DNA of 64,000 bases, taken from a virus. A program made the translations under genes and the position numbers. The stretch covers positions 1 to 64,000 of IMG/VR virus record IMGVR_UViG_3300045996_002572. One strand, given 5' to 3'. This document shows positions 19,298 through 50,565 of the stretch, in pieces. The notes below the pieces were generated by a model. The model saw nothing but the letters and a program-made list of their open reading frames with translations. It ran no database searches and had not been told where the DNA came from. Numbering within the stretch: the first letter of the stretch is position 1; every line of letters starts with the position of its first letter.

Positions 19298-20248
19298 TTA
19301 CCGGCCCGGGCGGATCCCGAGCCGCAAGACTTCGTAGATATCCGCCGCTTCCGGATAGGTTCTGAGGACGGCGTCCAGGGCAGCGCGAAGCTCGACCGCG
19401 GTAGCGCCAAGGGCCTGGATCTCTGCGAACTCGACCTGGCCCACCGCCCAGCCCGCCCAGGTGTCCGGGTAGTCCGTCCAGTTGGCGAAGGAGGGCGACA
19501 GGGCAGCGATCGCGAGCGCCTGCACGGTGGAGGGCCCGGCCGGAGTTGAACCGGCGACATCCGACTTACAAGGACGGCGCTCTACCGTCTGAGCTACAGG
19601 CCCAATGCACGGGGCTCCCACCCGCTGCCCGGGATCGCCGGTCTGTCCCGCCCGCTGACTGCCAGGCTTCACCGCAGAGGGGAACGGCTGCGGCTCGCTG
19701 TCCCGAGGGAGCGAGGCCTCATCGCGAGGTCCAAGCACCTCGACTCCAGCGGTTCGCGGTGGCCGGTGCGAGGAGGGCGACTCACGAAATAGCGGTGCCC
19801 CATCAAGAGGCTCCAGGCGGACATCGAAGCAGATGTCGGGCTTCCACCGACCGCGGGGCGCTACCCCCTCTGCGCTATCGCCCGAAGCCACCCCCGCTGG
19901 CGCGCTCGCAAGTACAACTGTCGCCAGCGTCTCCCTCTCGCCCCCGGGCTGGGGCAACCTCCCGAGCGGGGCTTGGGCCCCGTACGAAACGATAGATGCT
20001 CCGGACGGCTCGCTTACAGGCTCTGCGGAGTCGGGCCGGGCGGCCTGAGCCATCGAGCGAGCCTCACTCCCTGAGGTTGCAGGGGCCGTGGCGCCGTAGC
20101 TCGCCACGGGATGTACACCGCGATTGCCGAAGCCGCGGTTGTCGGTCAAGGCAGAGAGACGGGCGCCGACCCGGTCATGGGCCGTAGCCCGCGCAAGCTC
20201 CAAACTCCGGAGGTCCGGGTCCGTGTCGACGATCACGGGGCGGTTCAC
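19298..20248 (-). CDS. uncertain ORF spanning the structured segment and tRNA-Thr (possibly only the last 75 codons, from GTG 19525, are translated)
   Basis: GTGA-coupled start at 20248, open through the tRNA. Confidence 0.3.
   Translation of the reverse strand: MNRPVIVDTDPDLRSLELARATAHDRVGARLSALTDNRGFGNRGVHPVASYGATAPATSGSEARSMAQAARPDSAEPVSEPSGASIVSYGAQAPLGRLPQPGGERETLATVVLASAPAGVASGDSAEGVAPRGRWKPDICFDVRLEPLDGAPLFRESPSSHRPPRTAGVEVLGPRDEASLPRDSEPQPFPSAVKPGSQRAGQTGDPGQRVGAPCIGPVAQTVERRPCKSDVAGSTPAGPSTVQALAIAALSPSFANWTDYPDTWAGWAVGQVEFAEIQALGATAVELRAALDAVLRTYPEAADIYEVLRLGIRPGR
19528..19603 (-). tRNA. tRNA-Thr(UGU) with encoded CCA
   Basis: GGGCCTG-TA-GCTC AGACGGTA GAGC-G-CCGTC CTTGTAA GTCGG-ATGTC-GCCGG TTCAACT CCGGC-CGGGCCC-T-CCA. 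Confidence 0.9.
19604..20200 (-). ncRNA. candidate large structured RNA upstream of tRNA-Thr
   Basis: three C(UNCG)G-capped hairpins, several further hairpins and nested long-range helices. Confidence 0.4.
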
Positions 20249-21380: not shown

Positions 21381-21925
21381 CGGCGGCCCCCGATCTTGAG
21401 GGCAGCCTCGACTGCATGGAGCTCGGCCGAGCTCGCCTGCCGGAGCCGGCGGCGGATGACCGTGAGCCGGATCGACTTGTCACGAGCCGGAGTCGTCTTA
21501 CCGCGTCCGAGCTCGGCCACGTCGCTGGCGTCGAGGTCTACGCCGAGAGCGCTGAGCTTGCCCGCGTATTTCGGGGTCGGGCGCTGGACGTCCCGCTCCC
21601 AAGCTCCCAAGGTCTGGACCGAGCAGCCGACCCGGACGGCGAAGACCTTCGTAGGCAGCTCGCCCCGGACGGCCCGGATCCGCTCTCCCGTGGAGGGCCG
21701 GCCCGGGACCATGGTGTCCGAGGTCACCGAGCAGCCCTCCCGGTGGAACTGGTAGGCGCCGCATTCCTCGCAGGGTGGCAAGGTCAGGCGGCGGACCTCG
21801 ATGGGCTCGCGGACCCTGACCACCCGGATGGAGTTGCGGAGGTTGTCGAGCACCTCGCGGGCGGCGGAGCGGTTCGCTTCCGGCCCGAACTCGACCCGAC
21901 CGACGGGGATCGCCGAGCCGCTCAC
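21377..21925 (-). CDS. XRE-type HTH protein
   Basis: GERIRAVRGELPTKVFAVRVGCSVQTLGAWERDVQRP. Confidence 0.7.
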   Translation of the reverse strand: MSGSAIPVGRVEFGPEANRSAAREVLDNLRNSIRVVRVREPIEVRRLTLPPCEECGAYQFHREGCSVTSDTMVPGRPSTGERIRAVRGELPTKVFAVRVGCSVQTLGAWERDVQRPTPKYAGKLSALGVDLDASDVAELGRGKTTPARDKSIRLTVIRRRLRQASSAELHAVEAALKIGGRR

Positions 21926-22176
21926 TGCAAGCTCTCCAGCATCTCGGCATGGGCCTCGTCACTCGCAAGGCACCAGACGTTGCGCCGCAGGTTCACCCAC
22001 CAGGCGATCTCCGCCTTGCGGTCGACCTCGGTGGGCCGGAGCAACTGCCCGTCCGTTGAGGCCGCCGCCTGCTCGATGATCCGGAGATCGGACTCGGTCA
22101 GCGCCGGCTCAGGGTTCGGACCCTGCAGGGGGGCGAGATCCTGCGGCCATACTCGGGAGAGGGTCGCGAGGATCAT
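21922..22176 (-). CDS. hypothetical protein (CII-like position)
   Basis: coupled directly downstream of cro-like gene. Confidence 0.5.
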   Translation of the reverse strand: MILATLSRVWPQDLAPLQGPNPEPALTESDLRIIEQAAASTDGQLLRPTEVDRKAEIAWWVNLRRNVWCLASDEAHAEMLESLQ

Positions 22177-22388
22177 GCGGACCTCCGGGCCCAGCTGCCG
22201 GCCGGCACCTTGGTCACGGCCTCAAGCCGGGCGGCGAGATCCAGCGAGGGCTTGTCGTGCCCGTTCAGAACGTTGCAGAGGTGTACCCGCGATACGCCCA
22301 GCTCGCGGGCGAGGCTGGTTTGGGAGCGCCGTACCTTCTTGAGAAAGGTCCGCACTCTCTCGGGAGCGTCGATCTCGTGAGGTGCCAT
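22173..22388 (-). CDS. Cro-like XRE HTH regulator
   Basis: SQTSLARELGVSRVHLCNVLNGHDKPSLDLAARLE; first gene of early operon, divergent from repressor. Confidence 0.85.
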   Translation of the reverse strand: MAPHEIDAPERVRTFLKKVRRSQTSLARELGVSRVHLCNVLNGHDKPSLDLAARLEAVTKVPAGSWARRSA

Positions 22389-22395
22389 TGGGCAT

Positions 22396-22424
22396 AATGT
22401 AGGACTGATCCAACCTGTTGTCAA
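22396..22424 (-). promoter_or_regulatory. sigma70-type early promoter (PR-like)
   Basis: TTGACA-17 nt-TACATT, 7 nt before cro ATG. Confidence 0.8.
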
Positions 22425-22480
22425 GCCCCAACTAGGCCTGATGCGGCCTCTTGTGTATGACCACTCCAACCTGTTAGGCT
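22409..22480. promoter_or_regulatory. candidate operator repeat TCCAACCTGTT (two copies) and PRM-like promoter
   Basis: Same 11-mer at ~22409-22419 and ~22465-22475, each within a promoter spacer; TTGTGT-18-TAGGCT 8 nt before repressor ATG. Confidence 0.6.
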
Positions 22481-22488
22481 TCCCGGCC

Positions 22489-22905
22489 ATGCCTCCTCTG
22501 GAGACACTTGGCCCGGCGTTGCGCGCGCTTAGGGAAGCCGCTGGCCTTTCGCAGGACCAGGTCGCGGCGGCTATGGGTGCGGGCCAAAGGCAGGTCAGCA
22601 GGTACGAGGCCGGCGACGCCGACCCGCGCACCCGCACTTTGCTGCGGTTCCTTGATGCCGTGGGCTCAGATCTCGCGGAGCTTCAACGCGCCATGGAGGG
22701 ACAATCCATACAGCCTCGCGGCGGAGGTCATGGTCAGGCAGGTAGCGGGGGCGGACAGGAGATAGACGGCTCGACCGCGGCCCGCAGCCTTCAGGCCTTG
22801 GCGGAGGCGTTGGCGCGTCCCCCGGTCACGGAGGAGCGGCTGAGGGAGATCGTGAAGGAAGAAGTGGCGCGCCAGCTACCGCCGAGCGCCAGCGCGTCGA
22901 AGTGA
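22489..22905 (+). CDS. CI-like XRE repressor (no S24 peptidase domain)
   Basis: LGPALRALREAAGLSQDQVAAAMGAGQRQVSRYEAGDADP; divergent from cro-like gene. Confidence 0.85.
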   Translation: MPPLETLGPALRALREAAGLSQDQVAAAMGAGQRQVSRYEAGDADPRTRTLLRFLDAVGSDLAELQRAMEGQSIQPRGGGHGQAGSGGGQEIDGSTAARSLQALAEALARPPVTEERLREIVKEEVARQLPPSASASK

Positions 22906-24000
22906 CGCCCCGGCCCTCAGGAGACAGTCGGCGGCGCGGTATTCGAACTGGGCAGCGGCCGCCCTCCGGAGAAGGCGAGCCGCTATTGCTTCGGACGGGA
23001 TTGCCGCCCCCTCGAAGGCCGACTCGACCAGCGCCGCGGAGTGCTCCGCCTCGCTCGATCGGCCGAGCACCACTAAGAGATGCGACAGTTCGAGGCCTAC
23101 GAACGCAGCCTCGTACCAGACGCGGGCCGCAAGGTAGCCGTCTAGCGCGCCGCGCAGCTTCAGTTCCGCCAGGGCGGAGCAGCCCAGCTCTCGTGCCACC
23201 CGGCCGTGAATCCACAGACGCCGCAGAGCGAGCAGATGATCGCCCACCTCTTTGTAGAGCGACTCGGCGCCGTCCAGGGCGACCAAGGCATCGGCAGGCC
23301 TCTTGCCGTCGAGTAGATACTCGGCCAGATTGTGCGCCGCCGCTAGCATCAGGCGCGGATCCCGGTGTCGATCGATTAGCGGCATGGCCTCGGTCAAAGA
23401 GTCGACCGCATCGCGATGGTTCCCCAGCTCGTTTTCGGCCACGGACCGGCGCACCAAGGAGAACGCGAGCGCGTGTGGGTTATCCTGCGACCGCCGCACG
23501 GCCACGACGCCGTTGAGCAGTCGGAGCGCCGAGCGCAACCGACGCTGCCGGAGATAGATCGCCGCGCGCTCTTCTCGGAGGTTTGCTGCGACCACCGGAG
23601 AGCCGGTGCCGCTGAGCGCGAAGCGCATAGCCGCGTCGATAGCGGAGTGAGCGGCCGAGAAGTCGCCAGCCACCCTCAGGCCGGCACCGAACGCTCGATG
23701 GGCATCGGCCGCCAGATCCGAGATTTCGGGGCGCTGATCAAGGCGGGACAGGGCATCGGCGGACGCTGCTGCAGTACGAGCAAGCTGCAGCATCCGAGCG
23801 GGCTCCACGAACCGCGCAGCGAAGCTTTCGGCGATCAGGGAGGAGATCACCTCTGGCCGCTGGCAGCGAGTAGAGCTAGCGAGAGCCAGACTTGTCCCCC
23901 GTGGGACGCGGCGAACGGCGAACTGCATGATGGCGCGGAGTCTATCACGAAGCGGTGAAAAGCGGCGAGGCTCCGCCTGGTGAAAATGGCGGAGCCCCAT
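22876..24000 (-). CDS. tetratricopeptide-repeat-like all-helical protein, putative peptide receptor
   Basis: repeated TPR-like helices (AHRAFGAGLRVAGDFSAA, LGNHRDAVDSL, AAHNLAEYLLDGKRPADAL, HGRVARELG). Confidence 0.75.
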   Translation of the reverse strand: MGLRHFHQAEPRRFSPLRDRLRAIMQFAVRRVPRGTSLALASSTRCQRPEVISSLIAESFAARFVEPARMLQLARTAAASADALSRLDQRPEISDLAADAHRAFGAGLRVAGDFSAAHSAIDAAMRFALSGTGSPVVAANLREERAAIYLRQRRLRSALRLLNGVVAVRRSQDNPHALAFSLVRRSVAENELGNHRDAVDSLTEAMPLIDRHRDPRLMLAAAHNLAEYLLDGKRPADALVALDGAESLYKEVGDHLLALRRLWIHGRVARELGCSALAELKLRGALDGYLAARVWYEAAFVGLELSHLLVVLGRSSEAEHSAALVESAFEGAAIPSEAIAARLLRRAAAAQFEYRAADCLLRAGASLRRAGARR

Positions 24001-24009
24001 CGTGTCGGC

Positions 24010-24372
24010 TTAGGGCTGCTTGGGGCAGAGAATGCCGCCCGGATCGATCGCGCAGCCGGTGTCCCCGCCGCCGCTCTGCGTGGTCGAGCCTCCGCCCGCA
24101 CCCGAGGTGCCGCCGCTGCCGTCTGCCGGCGGCGTGGTCTCTGCCCCGGTGACGTAGGTCCAGAAACTGGAGAGAGCATCAGAGAGCAGGTTCCAGATGG
24201 AATCAGCAGCCACACTTGTGTCCGCGGCGAGCAGCGGTGAACCGATCCCCGCCAGCGCGACACAGATGACCAGGGCGCCGGCAAGTGATCGGCGCGAGCG
24301 CGCTCCAGACGGGTCGACACCAGATCCACAGGGCTTGAGCTTCGGCATCCGGGTCGTGCTAGACTTTTTCAT
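24010..24372 (-). CDS. secreted pro-peptide (signal peptide, Gly/Ser/Thr linker, C-terminal DTGCAIDPGGILC)
   Basis: ATG 24372 with GGAGGGAG SD; RSRR-SLAGALVICVALAGIGSPLLA|A signal; motif repeated as CGSGVDPSG near N-terminus. Confidence 0.7.
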   Translation of the reverse strand: MKKSSTTRMPKLKPCGSGVDPSGARSRRSLAGALVICVALAGIGSPLLAADTSVAADSIWNLLSDALSSFWTYVTGAETTPPADGSGGTSGAGGGSTTQSGGGDTGCAIDPGGILCPKQP

Positions 24373-24503
24373 CAGAGTCTCCCTCCCCCGCAGACGCACA
24401 CCTCCCCTGCCATAGGGGACCGGCTCGCGGGGGTCATGCAGTCGATTGTACGGTGCTCAACCGCGTCCGCGACGTGACAACATTATTTTCCGGAGACATC
24501 GCA

Positions 24504-25037
24504 ATGTTGCAATTCCGCCATGTTGTCGTGTCAGGAGCACTCCTGCTATGTGCGATGGGGTGCGGAGATGGCGAGGAGGTGGATGTCTCGCCCCTGCCGC
24601 AGCTCCAGCAGGTGAAGGCCGCGCAGGCGAAGGCAGCCGCTCCCGCGGTGCTTCCCGGGGTGCGTCTCGCCGAGGTCCGGCGGCTGCTCACAGACAGTTA
24701 CACCGCCTGCTTGAAAGCAGTCGAGGCCACGGACGTTTGCTGGGACATCCTCGGCGCGAAGCTCGTCTTCGAGCACTGCATGAAGGATCGCGACCAGGTG
24801 CGGGCCGACCACGATCTGGCAGCGAGCGAAGCCGCGACGCTGATCCGGGATTTCTCCGGGGCCGCCCGCGATCCTCTCGTTCGGCTCGCCGCACTCGAGA
24901 GCCGGATGTGCCGCCTTGCCACGGATCCAGAGGGCGAAACGCTCGTCTCCTATCGGCAGAAGCGGACAGGATTGGAAGACGAGCGCAGGGGGTTAGAGGC
25001 CGAGCTGGACATCCTGGGATCGGGGGTGGCGCCGTGA
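24504..25037 (+). CDS. putative lipoprotein
   Basis: MLQFRHVVVSGALLLCAMG-C lipobox-like; GGAG SD. Confidence 0.65.
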   Translation: MLQFRHVVVSGALLLCAMGCGDGEEVDVSPLPQLQQVKAAQAKAAAPAVLPGVRLAEVRRLLTDSYTACLKAVEATDVCWDILGAKLVFEHCMKDRDQVRADHDLAASEAATLIRDFSGAARDPLVRLAALESRMCRLATDPEGETLVSYRQKRTGLEDERRGLEAELDILGSGVAP

Positions 25038-25672
25038 CGAGGTGGTTTGTCGTGCTGTTGCTCCTGCTGCCGTCGGCGGCCCAGGGTGGCTGGATTGTGC
25101 TCCGCAACGGAACCTCCATCGAAACGAAGGGTGTCTGGGTGGCCTCAAAGACCCACGTCGCCTACTACGACCCCAAGACCGGCAAGGCGAACGTCGTCCC
25201 CGTAGGCTTCGTAGATCTTGAAAAGAGCCGGGCAGCGACCAAGGCGGGCTCTCCTCCCCCAGCGCCCGCTCGAGAGAAGGTCGTCATCACAGATGCAGAC
25301 GTAGGAAACTACCCGGCCGCGGTCGCGGCGGCGCTCGCTCGCTTCAATGATGCCGTGGCCGCCGACAACATCGCCGCAGCTCTGGCGGCGCTAGACGAGA
25401 TGGTGAAGGCCGGCGGAGCGAGCCTTAGGCTCAACATGGTCGCGGAGCGCTGCGCTATCTCGTATGCGAATCCTCAAGCGCAAGCTCTTTGCCGAGTCGG
25501 CCGCCCGGTTCCTACCTACATGGCTGGCGAATACGATCCTGCAGCTCAGGCTAAAGCGGACCTCCTAGGCGTCAGAGAGGCCTATTTGAGCTGCTATGAA
25601 TCGTCGAGCGTACCGATGGAGCGTAGGAAGTGTATCGAGCGGGTGCGACGGGAATCAGGAGGCGCACCGTGA
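25034..25672 (+). CDS. secreted hypothetical protein
   Basis: coupled GTG 25034; signal RWFVVLLLLLPSAAQG; WIVLRNGTSIETKG..VDLEKSRAAT..VITDADV. Confidence 0.7.
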   Translation: MTRWFVVLLLLLPSAAQGGWIVLRNGTSIETKGVWVASKTHVAYYDPKTGKANVVPVGFVDLEKSRAATKAGSPPPAPAREKVVITDADVGNYPAAVAAALARFNDAVAADNIAAALAALDEMVKAGGASLRLNMVAERCAISYANPQAQALCRVGRPVPTYMAGEYDPAAQAKADLLGVREAYLSCYESSSVPMERRKCIERVRRESGGAP

Positions 25673-25675
25673 CTC

Positions 25676-27781
25676 TCAGCCGCCGTACGGCGCCACCAGC
25701 CACGTCGGTACGGCTGCGTACCGGTCGGGGAACGCATTGACCGTGGCCTTGTGCATCGCCGCGTAGTACTCGTCCGCTCGCGGCAGGCCCCAGCTCACCG
25801 CCGCAGCGAGGGCCGCCTGAGCGATGGCCTGGTAATGCTGCGGGTCGCGCGGGTTGAAGACCCCCGGGTCCGGCGGCCGGACGAAGCGGACGAGCGTTTC
25901 CCAATCCCGGATCCGCCCGCCGACCTTGAGCTCCCCGGGAAGGTCGTAGGGAGTGCAGTTCGGCTCCAAGACCCCGAAGGTGGCGCACCGGCCGAGCAGG
26001 TTGCCGACGATCCACGTGCCCACCTGCCGGACGAGCTCCGCCGGCAGTGCCCCCATGCGCTCGATCCACGGCAGCGTGGCGGCGTACATGTCCTCCTGCC
26101 AGCTCCGGTAGAAGGAGGCGAGAGCAGTAATACCGGCCTTGGTGTACCGGTCCATGGTGTCGGTATTGCGCCCGATGATCCCGAGCGGCGAGGTGGGCGC
26201 CTCGACCTCCATGTACCAGCGGAAGCTCCGCTCCAGCACTGCCGAGAAGAACTTCTTCGCCGGCTCCTCCCAGTGGGGCGCAAAGGCTGCCGTGACGGCG
26301 ATCGTCCTGACGACCCATGCCTCGGCTCGGGTGGTGCCATGGGCAGGGCCGATCAGTCCGAGAGACTCCTTGCGGTACTTCCAATTCCGGGCGTAGAGGT
26401 TGAAGTGGGAGAGCATCACGAGCCCGGTGTGGTATTGCTGGAATCCGGTCAGGAGCCAGGGGCCGAGGCCGAGCGCCGGCTGGTGCTCACTGTCCAGCCT
26501 GTAGACATCGGAGTAGGCCACGGGGGGGAGGCGGTCTGCGGCCGGCACGTTGTCGCCCGGGTTTGAGAGCGTCGCCCGTGGGTGCTGCTCGATCGAGTAG
26601 GGGTCGTCGGTCACTGGGTCGCGCAAGGCGGCGCCGAACAGGCCCAGCGCCTCGCCAGCCTTGAGGGACACCGGGAAGAGCCGCGGGTCGCCGGTCAGCA
26701 GGAGCAGCACATCCCAGCCGGGCAGCGGCCCGATATCTTTTCGGCCGCCCGGCGTCCCCATCGCGGGAAGCACCAGGCCATGGGGCTTGGCATTGCTCTC
26801 GGCCACGAGGTCAAGAATGGTCTTCTCGGAGACCGGCGCCGGCAGGGCGGCATAGTTCGGGATGGCGCCGGCCGCCTTCCACCGGGCGAGGTCTGGCGCC
26901 ACGAAGCCCAGCTTGTCGGGATGGCTGTGGAAGATCCGCCGCTCTCGGTAGGGCAGCGACACGGCACCGCCGCCGGCGACCGTGCCCCCGATCGTCAGCT
27001 CCCAGGTGCAGGCGACGGTTCCCGGCAGAACGTCCAGCGTGGCCAGGCTGTTGTCGATCGACACGCACCAGGTGGAGGAGCCGTCCGGGTAGTGGCGCAA
27101 GGTCACCTCGCCACACAGCTTGCCGGCTTGCCAGGTGAAGTCCCGCAGGCAGATGTCGGGGCCGTGAACGAGCCGCCGGAGTTGCCCCTGAACCTCTCGC
27201 CCGTCGATTCGGAAGAACGTTCCGACCGGCATCGTCGCGGATCGCGGATCGGGGACCGCCAGCGCTTCGATGGTGAGGTGTCCTTGAGCTGCCTCGGCAG
27301 AGAGCAGGGCGTGGCGCACGCTCCCGTCCGGCCAGTAGGAATAGGCGATCAGGGTCGCGGGGGCCTCCCCGGCGAAGAGGCGGTCGACCTCGCGGACCTC
27401 CCCCTGCCGGAAGAAGTGCCCGAAGCTAACGTAGGTCGCCGAGCCCGGGTGCATCGTAACCTCGCCGACAACGCGCCTCTCCGGCTCCGGATTACCCCCG
27501 CCACGCTGGCACTCCCCGATCTGTGCCTCCAGCTCTGCCACCCGGGCGAGGGCCGCACCGAGGCGCTCCTCTGCCGCAGCAAGCAGCGCCTGCTTTTCGG
27601 CCACCGCGGCCTCGAGCCACGTCTCCCGCTCAACGGCTTCCGCAAGATCGGCCGCCAATCGGACCCGCTCTCCTTCCACCCGTCGCACCTCATCTTGTGC
27701 AGCGGCAAGGGATCCGAGGTCGGCTTGCCACTGCACAGCAGCAGCTTCCACGGAGGAGGCGAGGAGGTCCGGCGTGGTCAT
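25676..27781 (-). CDS. large protein: N-terminal coiled coil + putative polysaccharide lyase-like beta/alpha-toroid region
   Basis: VSFGHFFRQGEV..YWPDGSVRHALLS, MGTPGGRKDIGPLPGW, SEHQP, RAEAWVVR; ATG 27781 with GAGG SD. Confidence 0.6.
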   Translation of the reverse strand: MTTPDLLASSVEAAAVQWQADLGSLAAAQDEVRRVEGERVRLAADLAEAVERETWLEAAVAEKQALLAAAEERLGAALARVAELEAQIGECQRGGGNPEPERRVVGEVTMHPGSATYVSFGHFFRQGEVREVDRLFAGEAPATLIAYSYWPDGSVRHALLSAEAAQGHLTIEALAVPDPRSATMPVGTFFRIDGREVQGQLRRLVHGPDICLRDFTWQAGKLCGEVTLRHYPDGSSTWCVSIDNSLATLDVLPGTVACTWELTIGGTVAGGGAVSLPYRERRIFHSHPDKLGFVAPDLARWKAAGAIPNYAALPAPVSEKTILDLVAESNAKPHGLVLPAMGTPGGRKDIGPLPGWDVLLLLTGDPRLFPVSLKAGEALGLFGAALRDPVTDDPYSIEQHPRATLSNPGDNVPAADRLPPVAYSDVYRLDSEHQPALGLGPWLLTGFQQYHTGLVMLSHFNLYARNWKYRKESLGLIGPAHGTTRAEAWVVRTIAVTAAFAPHWEEPAKKFFSAVLERSFRWYMEVEAPTSPLGIIGRNTDTMDRYTKAGITALASFYRSWQEDMYAATLPWIERMGALPAELVRQVGTWIVGNLLGRCATFGVLEPNCTPYDLPGELKVGGRIRDWETLVRFVRPPDPGVFNPRDPQHYQAIAQAALAAAVSWGLPRADEYYAAMHKATVNAFPDRYAAVPTWLVAPYGG

Positions 27782-27843
27782 AGGCGATGCACCTCTACGG
27801 CTGTGCGTTGTGGGGCAGGATGTCGCGCGCCTCCCAGGATAGC

Positions 27844-27893
27844 GCGGCATTTTGACCAAGGCAAGGCAAAATGTCGCAGTCCGGTGGTACGAT
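27844..27893. promoter_or_regulatory. inverted repeat plus extended -10 element at the head of the late region
   Basis: GCGGCATTTTG...CAAAATGTCGC inverted repeat; TGgTACGAT at ~27885-27893. Confidence 0.4.
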
Positions 27894-50492: not shown

Positions 50493-50565
50493 CGCAGGGT
50501 GGCGCAGTCGTTAGCGCGCGGGGTTCATACCCCAGAGGTCGCAGGTTCAAGTCCTGCCCCTGCAA
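50493..50565 (+). tRNA. tRNA-Met(CAU), initiator-type, degenerate
   Basis: C1:A72 mismatch, three G-C pairs closing CAT loop, GCAGG TTCAAGT CCTGC; D-loop lacks GG, 3' end AGCA not ACCA. Confidence 0.8.

Follow-up and report, generated by a model that had tools for sequence, protein, structure and literature searches.

The window analysed here, the first 64 kb (positions 1 to 64,000) of the 74,297-nt IMG/VR virus record IMGVR_UViG_3300045996_002572 (completeness of 91% according to CheckV), comes from a temperate tailed phage, presumably of soil, and carries a two-gene unit, consisting of a 120-aa pro-peptide gene and, 9 nt further on, the gene of a 374-aa tetratricopeptide repeat (TPR) protein. 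The TPR gene converges on a CI-like gene for a helix-turn-helix (HTH) protein of the XRE type, P0003, with a 30-bp overlap of the 3′ ends. This arrangement had been described in an original prediction made without database searches, and all of its parts were found in the sequence. The phage host probably belongs to the Acidobacteria, class Thermoanaerobaculia (Acidobacteriota). In our preferred reading, to which we give about an even chance, the three genes are related to a cassette of the host class and the peptide/receptor pair acts on the neighbouring repressor, by analogy with the action of Rap on Rco in plasmid pLS20; what was observed directly comprises the genes and their order, which is conserved, the family to which they belong, the fold and the setting in a phage. 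The features on which this reading is built are as follows.

24010–24372, minus strand: pro-peptide gene, 120 aa, recognised from its open reading frame (ORF), ribosome-binding site and family likeness.

24025–24054, minus strand: codons of the loop C107-AIDPGGIL-C116, predicted to bind the receptor and a candidate for the mature signal, from the Cys-loop pattern and the complex model.

24304–24318, minus strand: second motif copy, VDPSG (in KPCGSGVDPSG), seen in the translation of the N-region, which precedes the hydrophobic core and thus lies on the cytoplasmic side.

22876–24000, minus strand: gene of the cytoplasmic TPR protein, 374 aa, TPR-only, with its ATG 9 nt past the TAA of the peptide gene.

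22489–22905, plus strand: XRE-type HTH protein P0003, repressor-like, 138 aa from the ATG at 22489 (154 aa from 22441), matching HTH_31 (1.1e-13) and HTH_3 (7.2e-13).

The pro-peptide gene starts at the ATG at 24372, ahead of which a Shine-Dalgarno-like GGAGG/GGGAG stretch was located at 24379–24389; the gene caller placed the start at M9, giving 112 aa. The translation begins with a long basic N-region that includes RSRR; next come a hydrophobic core (LAGALVICVALAGIG), a Trp-bearing amphipathic helix (DSIWNLLSDALSSFWTYV) and a Gly/Ser/Thr spacer, and the tail GGGDTGCAIDPGGILCPKQP closes the protein. The export signal was judged by eye from the translation, with putative signal-peptidase sites at LLA/A or VAA/D (by inspection), and the precursor is thus predicted to be an exported protein. 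No match to the precursor was obtained in Pfam, NCBIfam, PHROGs or PADLOC, a word search among 5.8 billion proteins returned zero homologues, and the codon signal of the small ORF was weak (GC by position of 0.60/0.66/0.75). The codon signal and the empty word search are compatible with the view, which we consider most improbable, that the small ORF is not a gene, that the likeness of its tail to cellular peptides is coincidental and that the TPR protein is a general protein-interaction scaffold. We took the ORF as real because of its ribosome-binding site, family likeness and conserved gene order. A six-frame translation of all 74 kb of the phage contained the Cys-loop pattern C.[IVLM]DP.G.{1,2}C a single time. 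In 400 kb of control DNA from a host-class genome (20 pieces of 20 kb each, taken at even intervals from one complete genome), every match lay within one of two peptide ORFs that border TPR-family genes. All four precursor parts are present in the correct order, the gene order and spacing are as in the cellular cassettes, and the complex model described below singles out the motif; like the ribosome-binding site, these points argue against a chance ORF.

The word search for the TPR protein returned only five distant relatives, which a profile search showed to reflect the limit of sensitivity and not rarity. Against 1.84 billion representatives, the TPR profile, constructed from these few relatives, retrieved 3,379 proteins at E ≤ 1e-30, mostly of 440–500 aa, and within the same search the 324-aa version of the phage protein (P0004) scored E 8.8e-118. 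The identity of the phage TPR to its relatives was approximately 30% (25–35%). A scan of one genome per species yielded nine loci, all of them in Thermoanaerobaculia, and three genomes of this class contained at least 59, at least 59 and at least 87 copies, respectively. At E ≤ 1e-20, matches were present in 88 of the 201 sampled genomes of the class, a tally that takes in four unpublished genomes (G007, G138, G178 and G182), which entered into no other result. The original prediction had placed similar TPR proteins and xGCxIDPxG small proteins in Thermoanaerobaculia, and homologous pairs were indeed abundant there.

In nine of the nine loci, the TPR gene was immediately preceded by a small same-strand gene with a signal peptide and a Trp-rich helix, and these small genes hold one to three (G/H)GSxIDPNG-type units, some of which are bracketed by Cys. 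Among further paralog loci, a precursor with the strict motif was found in 19 of 30, and a looser motif finds more, so that the adjacency of TPR homologues to signal-peptide ORFs, which had been proposed as a check, was borne out. In the reverse test, only three multi-unit precursors were detected in the 400-kb sample, each abutting a TPR-family gene. Most cellular precursors carry 2–4 tandem motif units with spacers between them. The phage tail GDTGCAIDPGGILCPKQP is close to the cellular units GDTGCGIDPDGHCAPKQ (L033/L045) and DTGCRIDPDGRCAPKP (L081), with IDPGG in the phage peptide in place of the IDP(N/D)G found in most cellular units; judged from these sequences, the phage peptide is a diverged single-unit member of the cellular precursor family.

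The original prediction had further suggested a test for co-variation of receptors and peptides. Among the cellular cassettes, similarity between TPRs did not track similarity between peptides, and we claim no co-evolution. The cellular TPRs nearest to that of the phage pair with GSS[MI]DP[ND]G peptides, and the most phage-like Cys-loops lie beside more distant TPRs; no rule tying residue 180 of the TPR to the fourth position of the peptide was found by eye. Many TPR copies occur in tandem arrays (e.g., G001:C1:8666057 and 8668127, and three successive copies in G003:C290), and approximately a quarter to a third of the copies in the three Thermoanaerobaculaceae genomes G001, G002 and G003 have no recognisable adjacent precursor. 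Some cellular cassettes adjoin genes that, judged by eye, are recombinase- or transposase-like (L088:2915–3961, minus strand; L079:11309–11935, plus strand), and the cassettes may themselves ride mobile elements.

The TPR gene showed a gene-like codon-position pattern (GC at position 2 of 0.52), and no signal peptide or membrane segment was visible in its translation; the gene caller chose the GTG at 23850 as the start, corresponding to the 324-aa version. Pfam gave only a sub-threshold TPR_12 match and no HTH, and NCBIfam and PHROGs gave nothing relevant. Homology to the family starts at approximately residue 45. The relatives bear either an H-x3/4-C-x2-C motif or an XRE HTH at the N-terminus, before the TPR domain, and the phage copy has neither; since the stop codon of the peptide gene lies 9 nt upstream, there is no room for an N-terminal domain. 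The original prediction of a receptor lacking an evident HTH therefore holds. By eye, the H-x3/4-C-x2-C motif looks like a zinc-binding anti-sigma domain; Pfam detected no zinc-finger family in the two cellular members scanned, and extracytoplasmic function (ECF) sigma genes were located nearby in two cellular loci. A search for an ECF sigma partner encoded by the phage found none, which leaves the sigma/anti-sigma output proposed for the cellular zinc-motif forms without a phage partner.

AlphaFold2, run on a 60-sequence alignment, predicted an all-helical superhelix of 20-odd helices for the TPR protein, with a predicted local distance difference test value (pLDDT) of 89.4 and a predicted template modelling score (pTM) of 0.87. 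The best Foldseek matches of this model in the PDB were LGN/Pins and Rap proteins, including the phi3T Rap with its pheromone, at template modelling (TM) scores of 0.5–0.65 and identities of 12–16%. A search of the family profile against all PDB sequences returned consensus TPR, Pins/LGN and kinesin light chain, and no Rap, NprR, PlcR or AimR was among the best 60. The nearest clusters in the ESM Atlas were all TPR or hypothetical proteins, with Acidobacteriota the most common source.

The complex was modelled from TPR residues 45–374 and peptide residues 57–120 using our own alignment, together with three controls. The scores were 0.61, 0.67 and 0.61, as against 0.00 for the best of the three controls, and the runs shared at least 38% of their contacts; of 80 solved complexes, 58 attained such a score, as did 2 of 110 mismatched pairs, a calibration that is only rough here owing to the use of our own alignment. 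The confident interface corresponded exactly to residues 106–116 (GCAIDPGGILC) of the 64-residue, mostly disordered chain, whose own fold is uncertain, with a pLDDT of approximately 40. In the model, the loop runs along the groove and its contacts include the family-conserved R109, N224, R260 and W263. Modelling of the TPR with the peptide, which the original prediction had suggested as a check, thus placed the motif in the groove, and the model supports binding of the Cys-bracketed loop there. The modelled contact residues were no more conserved than other positions (mean entropy of 2.06 and 2.09, respectively; p = 0.44); both the least and the most variable columns are represented among them, and contact conservation was not used as evidence. 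At residues 106, 147 and 180, the phage TPR has A, A and F, where 46 of 46 aligned cellular paralogs have N and S at the first two positions and most have R at the third. All three positions (N106A, S147A and R180F) are modelled contact residues.

The connection of the pair to the repressor was drawn from gene order in the cellular family. In three of the three cellular TPR-only paralogs examined (L088, L089 and L091), an HTH gene, a convergent TPR-only gene and an upstream same-strand peptide gene were arranged as in the phage, and the HTH protein of L089 is a homologue of P0003 with 44% identity over 62 aa. In the cassettes L002, L005 and L007, whose zinc-motif TPR genes are of full length, a convergent HTH gene overlaps or abuts as well. 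Genes for HTH-TPR fusions often flank a Cys-loop precursor and a small XRE gene (L045–L047, L079 and L081), and at the N-terminus, at least one such fusion (L065) is matched by the HTH of P0003. When the P0003-like genes of three host-class genomes were ranked, seven of the best 20 lay within 1.5 kb of a TPR paralog, where the background is approximately 11% by a rough estimate from the 400-kb sample. HTH and TPR are fused in some paralogs and adjacent but split in others, a pattern that hints at a physical interaction, and from it we infer that the target of the phage TPR is the XRE protein encoded beside it. At one locus (L090:4975–6437, minus strand), a cellular HTH-TPR gene seems to be divided into a 204-aa ORF for the HTH and a linker and, overlapping it in another frame, a 325-aa ORF for the TPR part. 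The locus represents either a pseudogene produced by a frameshift or a way in which the split form, HTH plus TPR-only, can arise naturally. In P0003 itself, a Gly-rich linker, GSGGGQEIDGS (residues ~95–115 of the long form), resembles SGGGDTGCAIDPGG of the peptide; the linker may act as a pseudo-ligand of the TPR groove, or the likeness may be a low-complexity coincidence.

P0003 consists of one HTH and a 70-aa tail only according to Pfam, and it matches the transcriptional repressor and regulator families of PHROGs. Upstream of its gene, the following elements were identified.

22173–22388, minus strand: cro-like HTH gene, 71 aa, the first of the leftward early operon, matching PHROG regulator/repressor families at E values down to 3.8e-07.

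22396–22424, minus strand: sigma-70-like promoter, TTGACA-17 nt-TACATT, with 10 of 12 matches in the scan, reading into the cro-like gene.

22398–22475, plus strand: three 22-nt direct (not inverted) repeats, TGTAGGACTGATCCAACCTGTT and variants, candidate operators found by a repeat search between the divergent HTH genes.

The promoter was the sole promoter-like site in 21800–25200, where 0.2 were expected, and the two best repeat copies had no further match in the window, the number expected by chance being 0. The first repeat falls between the −35 and −10 hexamers of the promoter of the cro-like gene, and the third lies inside 22441–22488, which favours the ATG at 22489 as the start of P0003. 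Overall, the layout is that of a lambda-type CI/Cro switch, with divergent repressor and cro-like HTH genes and repeated candidate operators overlapping a promoter. It differs from lambda in that the repressor there has a self-cleaving S24 domain stimulated by RecA, whereas P0003 has no such domain. Since no match to Peptidase_S24 was obtained anywhere in the 74-kb record, the repressor is not of the self-cleaving type, and induction would need another route.

Taken together with the gene order, this context suggests the following mechanism for the preferred reading, in which the pair acts on the repressor. The 120-aa precursor would be exported via Sec or Tat, cleavage would free the C-terminal Cys-bracketed loop C-AIDPGGIL-C with short flanks, and the peptide would accumulate outside phage-carrying cells. 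It would then re-enter the cytoplasm and bind the concave TPR groove, as in the modelled complex. Because the phage TPR has neither zinc-motif nor HTH, it must act by protein contact, and its likeliest target would be the convergent XRE repressor, so that the TPR might serve as a peptide-sensitive anti-repressor or co-repressor, as RappLS20 does on RcopLS20, and the level of peptide would bias the repressor/cro-like switch. We regard as doubtful, although worth stating, the fuller claim that this is working phage communication in a diderm host, in which the peptide reports the number of neighbouring phage carriers, the TPR-only receptor (the detached sensor half of an HTH-TPR protein) holds or releases the repressor, and the changes in the groove and the peptide insulate the channel from those of the host.

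The closest functional parallel is found in the RRNPP systems. On the B. subtilis plasmid pLS20, a Rap without an HTH detaches the XRE-type repressor Rco and is silenced by its Phr* peptide (PMC7641744). RappLS20/Phr*pLS20/RcopLS20 thus shares with the reading proposed for the phage trio an HTH-less TPR protein, a secreted peptide, a separate XRE repressor at a divergent promoter and a mobile element, but it has no sequence relation to the phage genes, a Bacillota host, a linear Phr penta- or heptapeptide instead of a Cys-bracketed xIDPxG loop, and another gene order. The arbitrium system AimR-AimP-AimX of SPbeta/phi3T-like phages likewise combines a phage-encoded secreted pro-peptide, a TPR receptor of similar size and a lysogeny-control region, and the parallel expected from it is that the peptide level biases lysis versus lysogeny. 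In arbitrium, however, AimR binds DNA upstream of aimX through an N-terminal HTH, which the phage TPR lacks; no AimX-like element was identified in the phage; and the peptide gene comes first here, with unrelated sequence family and host phylum. The Rap-Phr proteins of phi3T/phi105 (PDB 8rsv, 8rte) are also phage-borne and HTH-less, and are among the best structural matches, and their pro-peptides can bear duplicated pheromone units (PMC11343458), as do the cellular precursors with their 2–4 units. These Rap proteins differ in similarity (TM ~0.5, 12–13% identity), in having a 3-helix bundle that binds Spo0F or ComA, and in acting on host development and not on a phage repressor.

Two further comparisons concern fold and family. 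LGN/Pins with NuMA, Inscuteable and Frmpd peptides (PDB 3sf4, 6hc2, 3ro2) gave the best Foldseek matches (TM ~0.6), with an eight-repeat superhelix and an extended peptide; these are eukaryotic cell-polarity proteins, and the analogy is one of fold and binding mode only. The acidobacterial DPxG-peptide/TPR cassettes, of the zinc-motif-TPR and XRE-HTH-TPR types, share with the phage a homologous TPR, the precursor architecture and the order of the TPR-only trio, whereas the phage copy lies at a repressor/cro-like switch, has no N-terminal output domain, carries a single unit plus the N-region copy, reads IDPGG and has three groove changes. Of the features of RRNPP(A) systems, we found a predicted TPR-type superhelix with a groove and, by inspection, an adjacent secreted pro-peptide gene, but no sequence homology in Pfam, NCBIfam, PHROGs or the PDB profile search. 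We therefore propose, by analogy, that the phage system works like RRNPP systems but is not a member of them. The arbitrium/RRNPP-like character that had originally been suggested stands as far as the architecture of a small secreted peptide and a TPR protein by a divergent switch is concerned, and falls with respect to a sequence relation to RRNPP or AimR, which is absent.

Several points weigh against an action of the pair on the phage repressor. Neither the 22-nt operator-like repeats nor, in the promoter scan, a recognisable promoter was found upstream of the peptide-TPR operon, and a Shine-Dalgarno sequence is absent before both candidate TPR starts, which fits translational coupling to the peptide gene. 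Thirteen of the 20 best P0003-like genes were not cassette-linked; the adjacency of TPR homologues to XRE repressors, proposed as a check, was seen in the TPR-only trios (3 of 3, with a convergent HTH gene). TPR superhelices are generic, solved structures of TPR-peptide complexes may have aided the modelling, and resemblance to the complexes of LGN or Rap can lead a model to put a peptide into the groove. The export and cleavage of the precursor and the passage of the peptide through the outer membrane, its re-import and its binding are all putative, and the return path in a diderm is longer than in Bacillota. No related phage locus was found in IMG/VR with the TPR protein, the peptide, two TPR alignments and the terminase as queries. 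Finally, N106A, S147A and R180F, together with IDPGG, may indicate a private specificity or equally decay.

If decay is the explanation, the pair would be a host-derived passenger cassette that is losing function and no longer signals. This view, to which we attach only a slight probability, would account for the loss of the output domain, the changes at groove positions near-invariant among the 46 cellular paralogs, the single atypical motif unit compared with 2–4 in most cellular precursors, the identity of only ~30% to any relative and the weak codon signal of the small ORF. It sits poorly with the intactness of both ORFs, the good ribosome-binding site of the peptide gene, a TPR model that is very confident over its full length and a complex model that still passes. 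The existence of intact cellular TPR-only trios further indicates that the missing N-terminal domain is a recurring architecture and not damage.

The position of the second motif copy bears on whether the peptide has to leave the cell at all. Two of the seven matches to [IVLM]DP[NDGS]G in the six-frame translation of the phage fall inside the 120-aa ORF, and the VDPSG copy in the N-region might serve as a binding site for the cytoplasmic TPR, either on the pre-protein or on a fragment of the signal peptide set free from it. The pair could accordingly form a cell-autonomous switch coupled to secretion, in which the TPR binds the unexported precursor, through the C-terminal loop, the N-region VDPSG copy or both, and is freed on its export, reporting the export or envelope state instead of cell density, in a FlgM-like manner. 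Such a switch, which we judge distinctly unlikely, would not require re-import across two membranes, would give a role to a motif copy on the cytoplasmic side of the signal sequence and is equally compatible with the complex model. The N-region copy, however, was not seen in the cellular precursors inspected, whose 2–4 tandem units are typical of processed, released peptides (PMC11343458); the Cys pairs around the motif suggest an extracytoplasmic disulfide; and a general export sensor would explain the presence of dozens of diversified paralogs in each genome less well than coded signalling does.

The base composition of the region raised the question of which genes belong together, and one more gene enters here.

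24453–25037, plus strand: lipoprotein-like gene, part of the block with atypical GC at the third codon position (GC3).

The P0003, TPR, peptide and lipoprotein genes have a common GC3 of 0.74–0.76, more than 3 standard deviations under that of 19 other phage genes (0.859 ± 0.030), while the cro-like gene, at 0.81, is in line with the rest of the phage. This shared low GC3 groups the repressor with the cassette and not with the rest of the phage. The low-GC3 block (22489–25037) begins exactly at the repressor/cro-like intergenic region. An atypical block of this kind, at a site typical of morons and beside two exported-protein genes, is also what a lysogenic-conversion moron would look like, and the pair might then tune or eavesdrop on host peptide/TPR circuits, soaking up peptides or titrating partners, instead of acting on the phage switch. 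We consider this unlikely. It agrees with the dozens of related circuits per genome in the host class, with the absence of phage operators from the upstream region of the pair and with the precedent of the phi3T Rap, which represses host sporulation and competence (PMC11343458). On the other hand, the groove and the peptide of the phage are both off the host consensus, contrary to direct cross-talk, and the conserved layout of HTH, convergent TPR-only and peptide genes marks the adjacent HTH protein as the partner, which in the phage sits at the switch.

The temperate nature of the phage is reflected in two genes of the record outside the window.

67770–69164 of the record (L044:3770–5164), minus strand: integrase, matching phrog_1 at E 1.5e-20.

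71146–71823 of the record (L044:7146–7823), minus strand: excisionase-like HTH_17 protein, from an HTH match.

These two genes lie ~45 kb from the repressor region and adjoin an N6/N4 DNA methylase gene. On the plus strand between 28 and 60 kb, PHROGs matches included a terminase, a portal, a head morphogenesis protein, a major head protein, a tape measure and an endolysin. No related prophage was found via the major head protein in 301 searched genomes of the class, a result that is silent on lifestyle. Only two soil metagenome runs were matched, each with 6–7% of the sampled words, and no RNA run was listed. A defence-system reading was dropped: in PADLOC, the TPR protein and the peptide had no match, and those of P0003 were confined to generic HTH entries.

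Peptide signalling via cytoplasmic TPR receptors, including its use in phage lysis/lysogeny, has, in the literature consulted, been described only for Bacillota and their mobile elements (PMC10075063, PMC9765709), and a large RRNPP survey regards such systems as a Bacillota trait. In the full-text literature, we found no paper linking RRNPP-type signalling to Acidobacteriota or describing a DPxG-peptide/TPR cassette. If the preferred reading is true, in which the peptide and its receptor act on the phage repressor, the same logic would have arisen, or been kept, in an unrelated family within a diderm soil phylum that is abundant and hard to culture, and phages of Acidobacteriota would use peptide signalling too. 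A family present in dozens of copies per genome would then gain a function, a synthesisable ligand of ~10–20 residues and three defined proteins. The phage copy, whose peptide has one unit and whose sensor lacks an output domain, is the simplest version and offers a handy biochemical entry point.

Other features of the window were noted in passing. A 727-aa gene (25676–27859, minus strand), located after the moron-like block and before the terminase, showed only a weak match to the PcRGLX-like N-terminal domain (E 5e-4) and no PHROG match. The window also encodes tRNA-Thr(TGT) at 19528–19603 (minus strand), which is covered by a long ORF at 19298–20248 that is probably no gene, and tRNA-Met(CAT) at 50493–50565 (plus strand).

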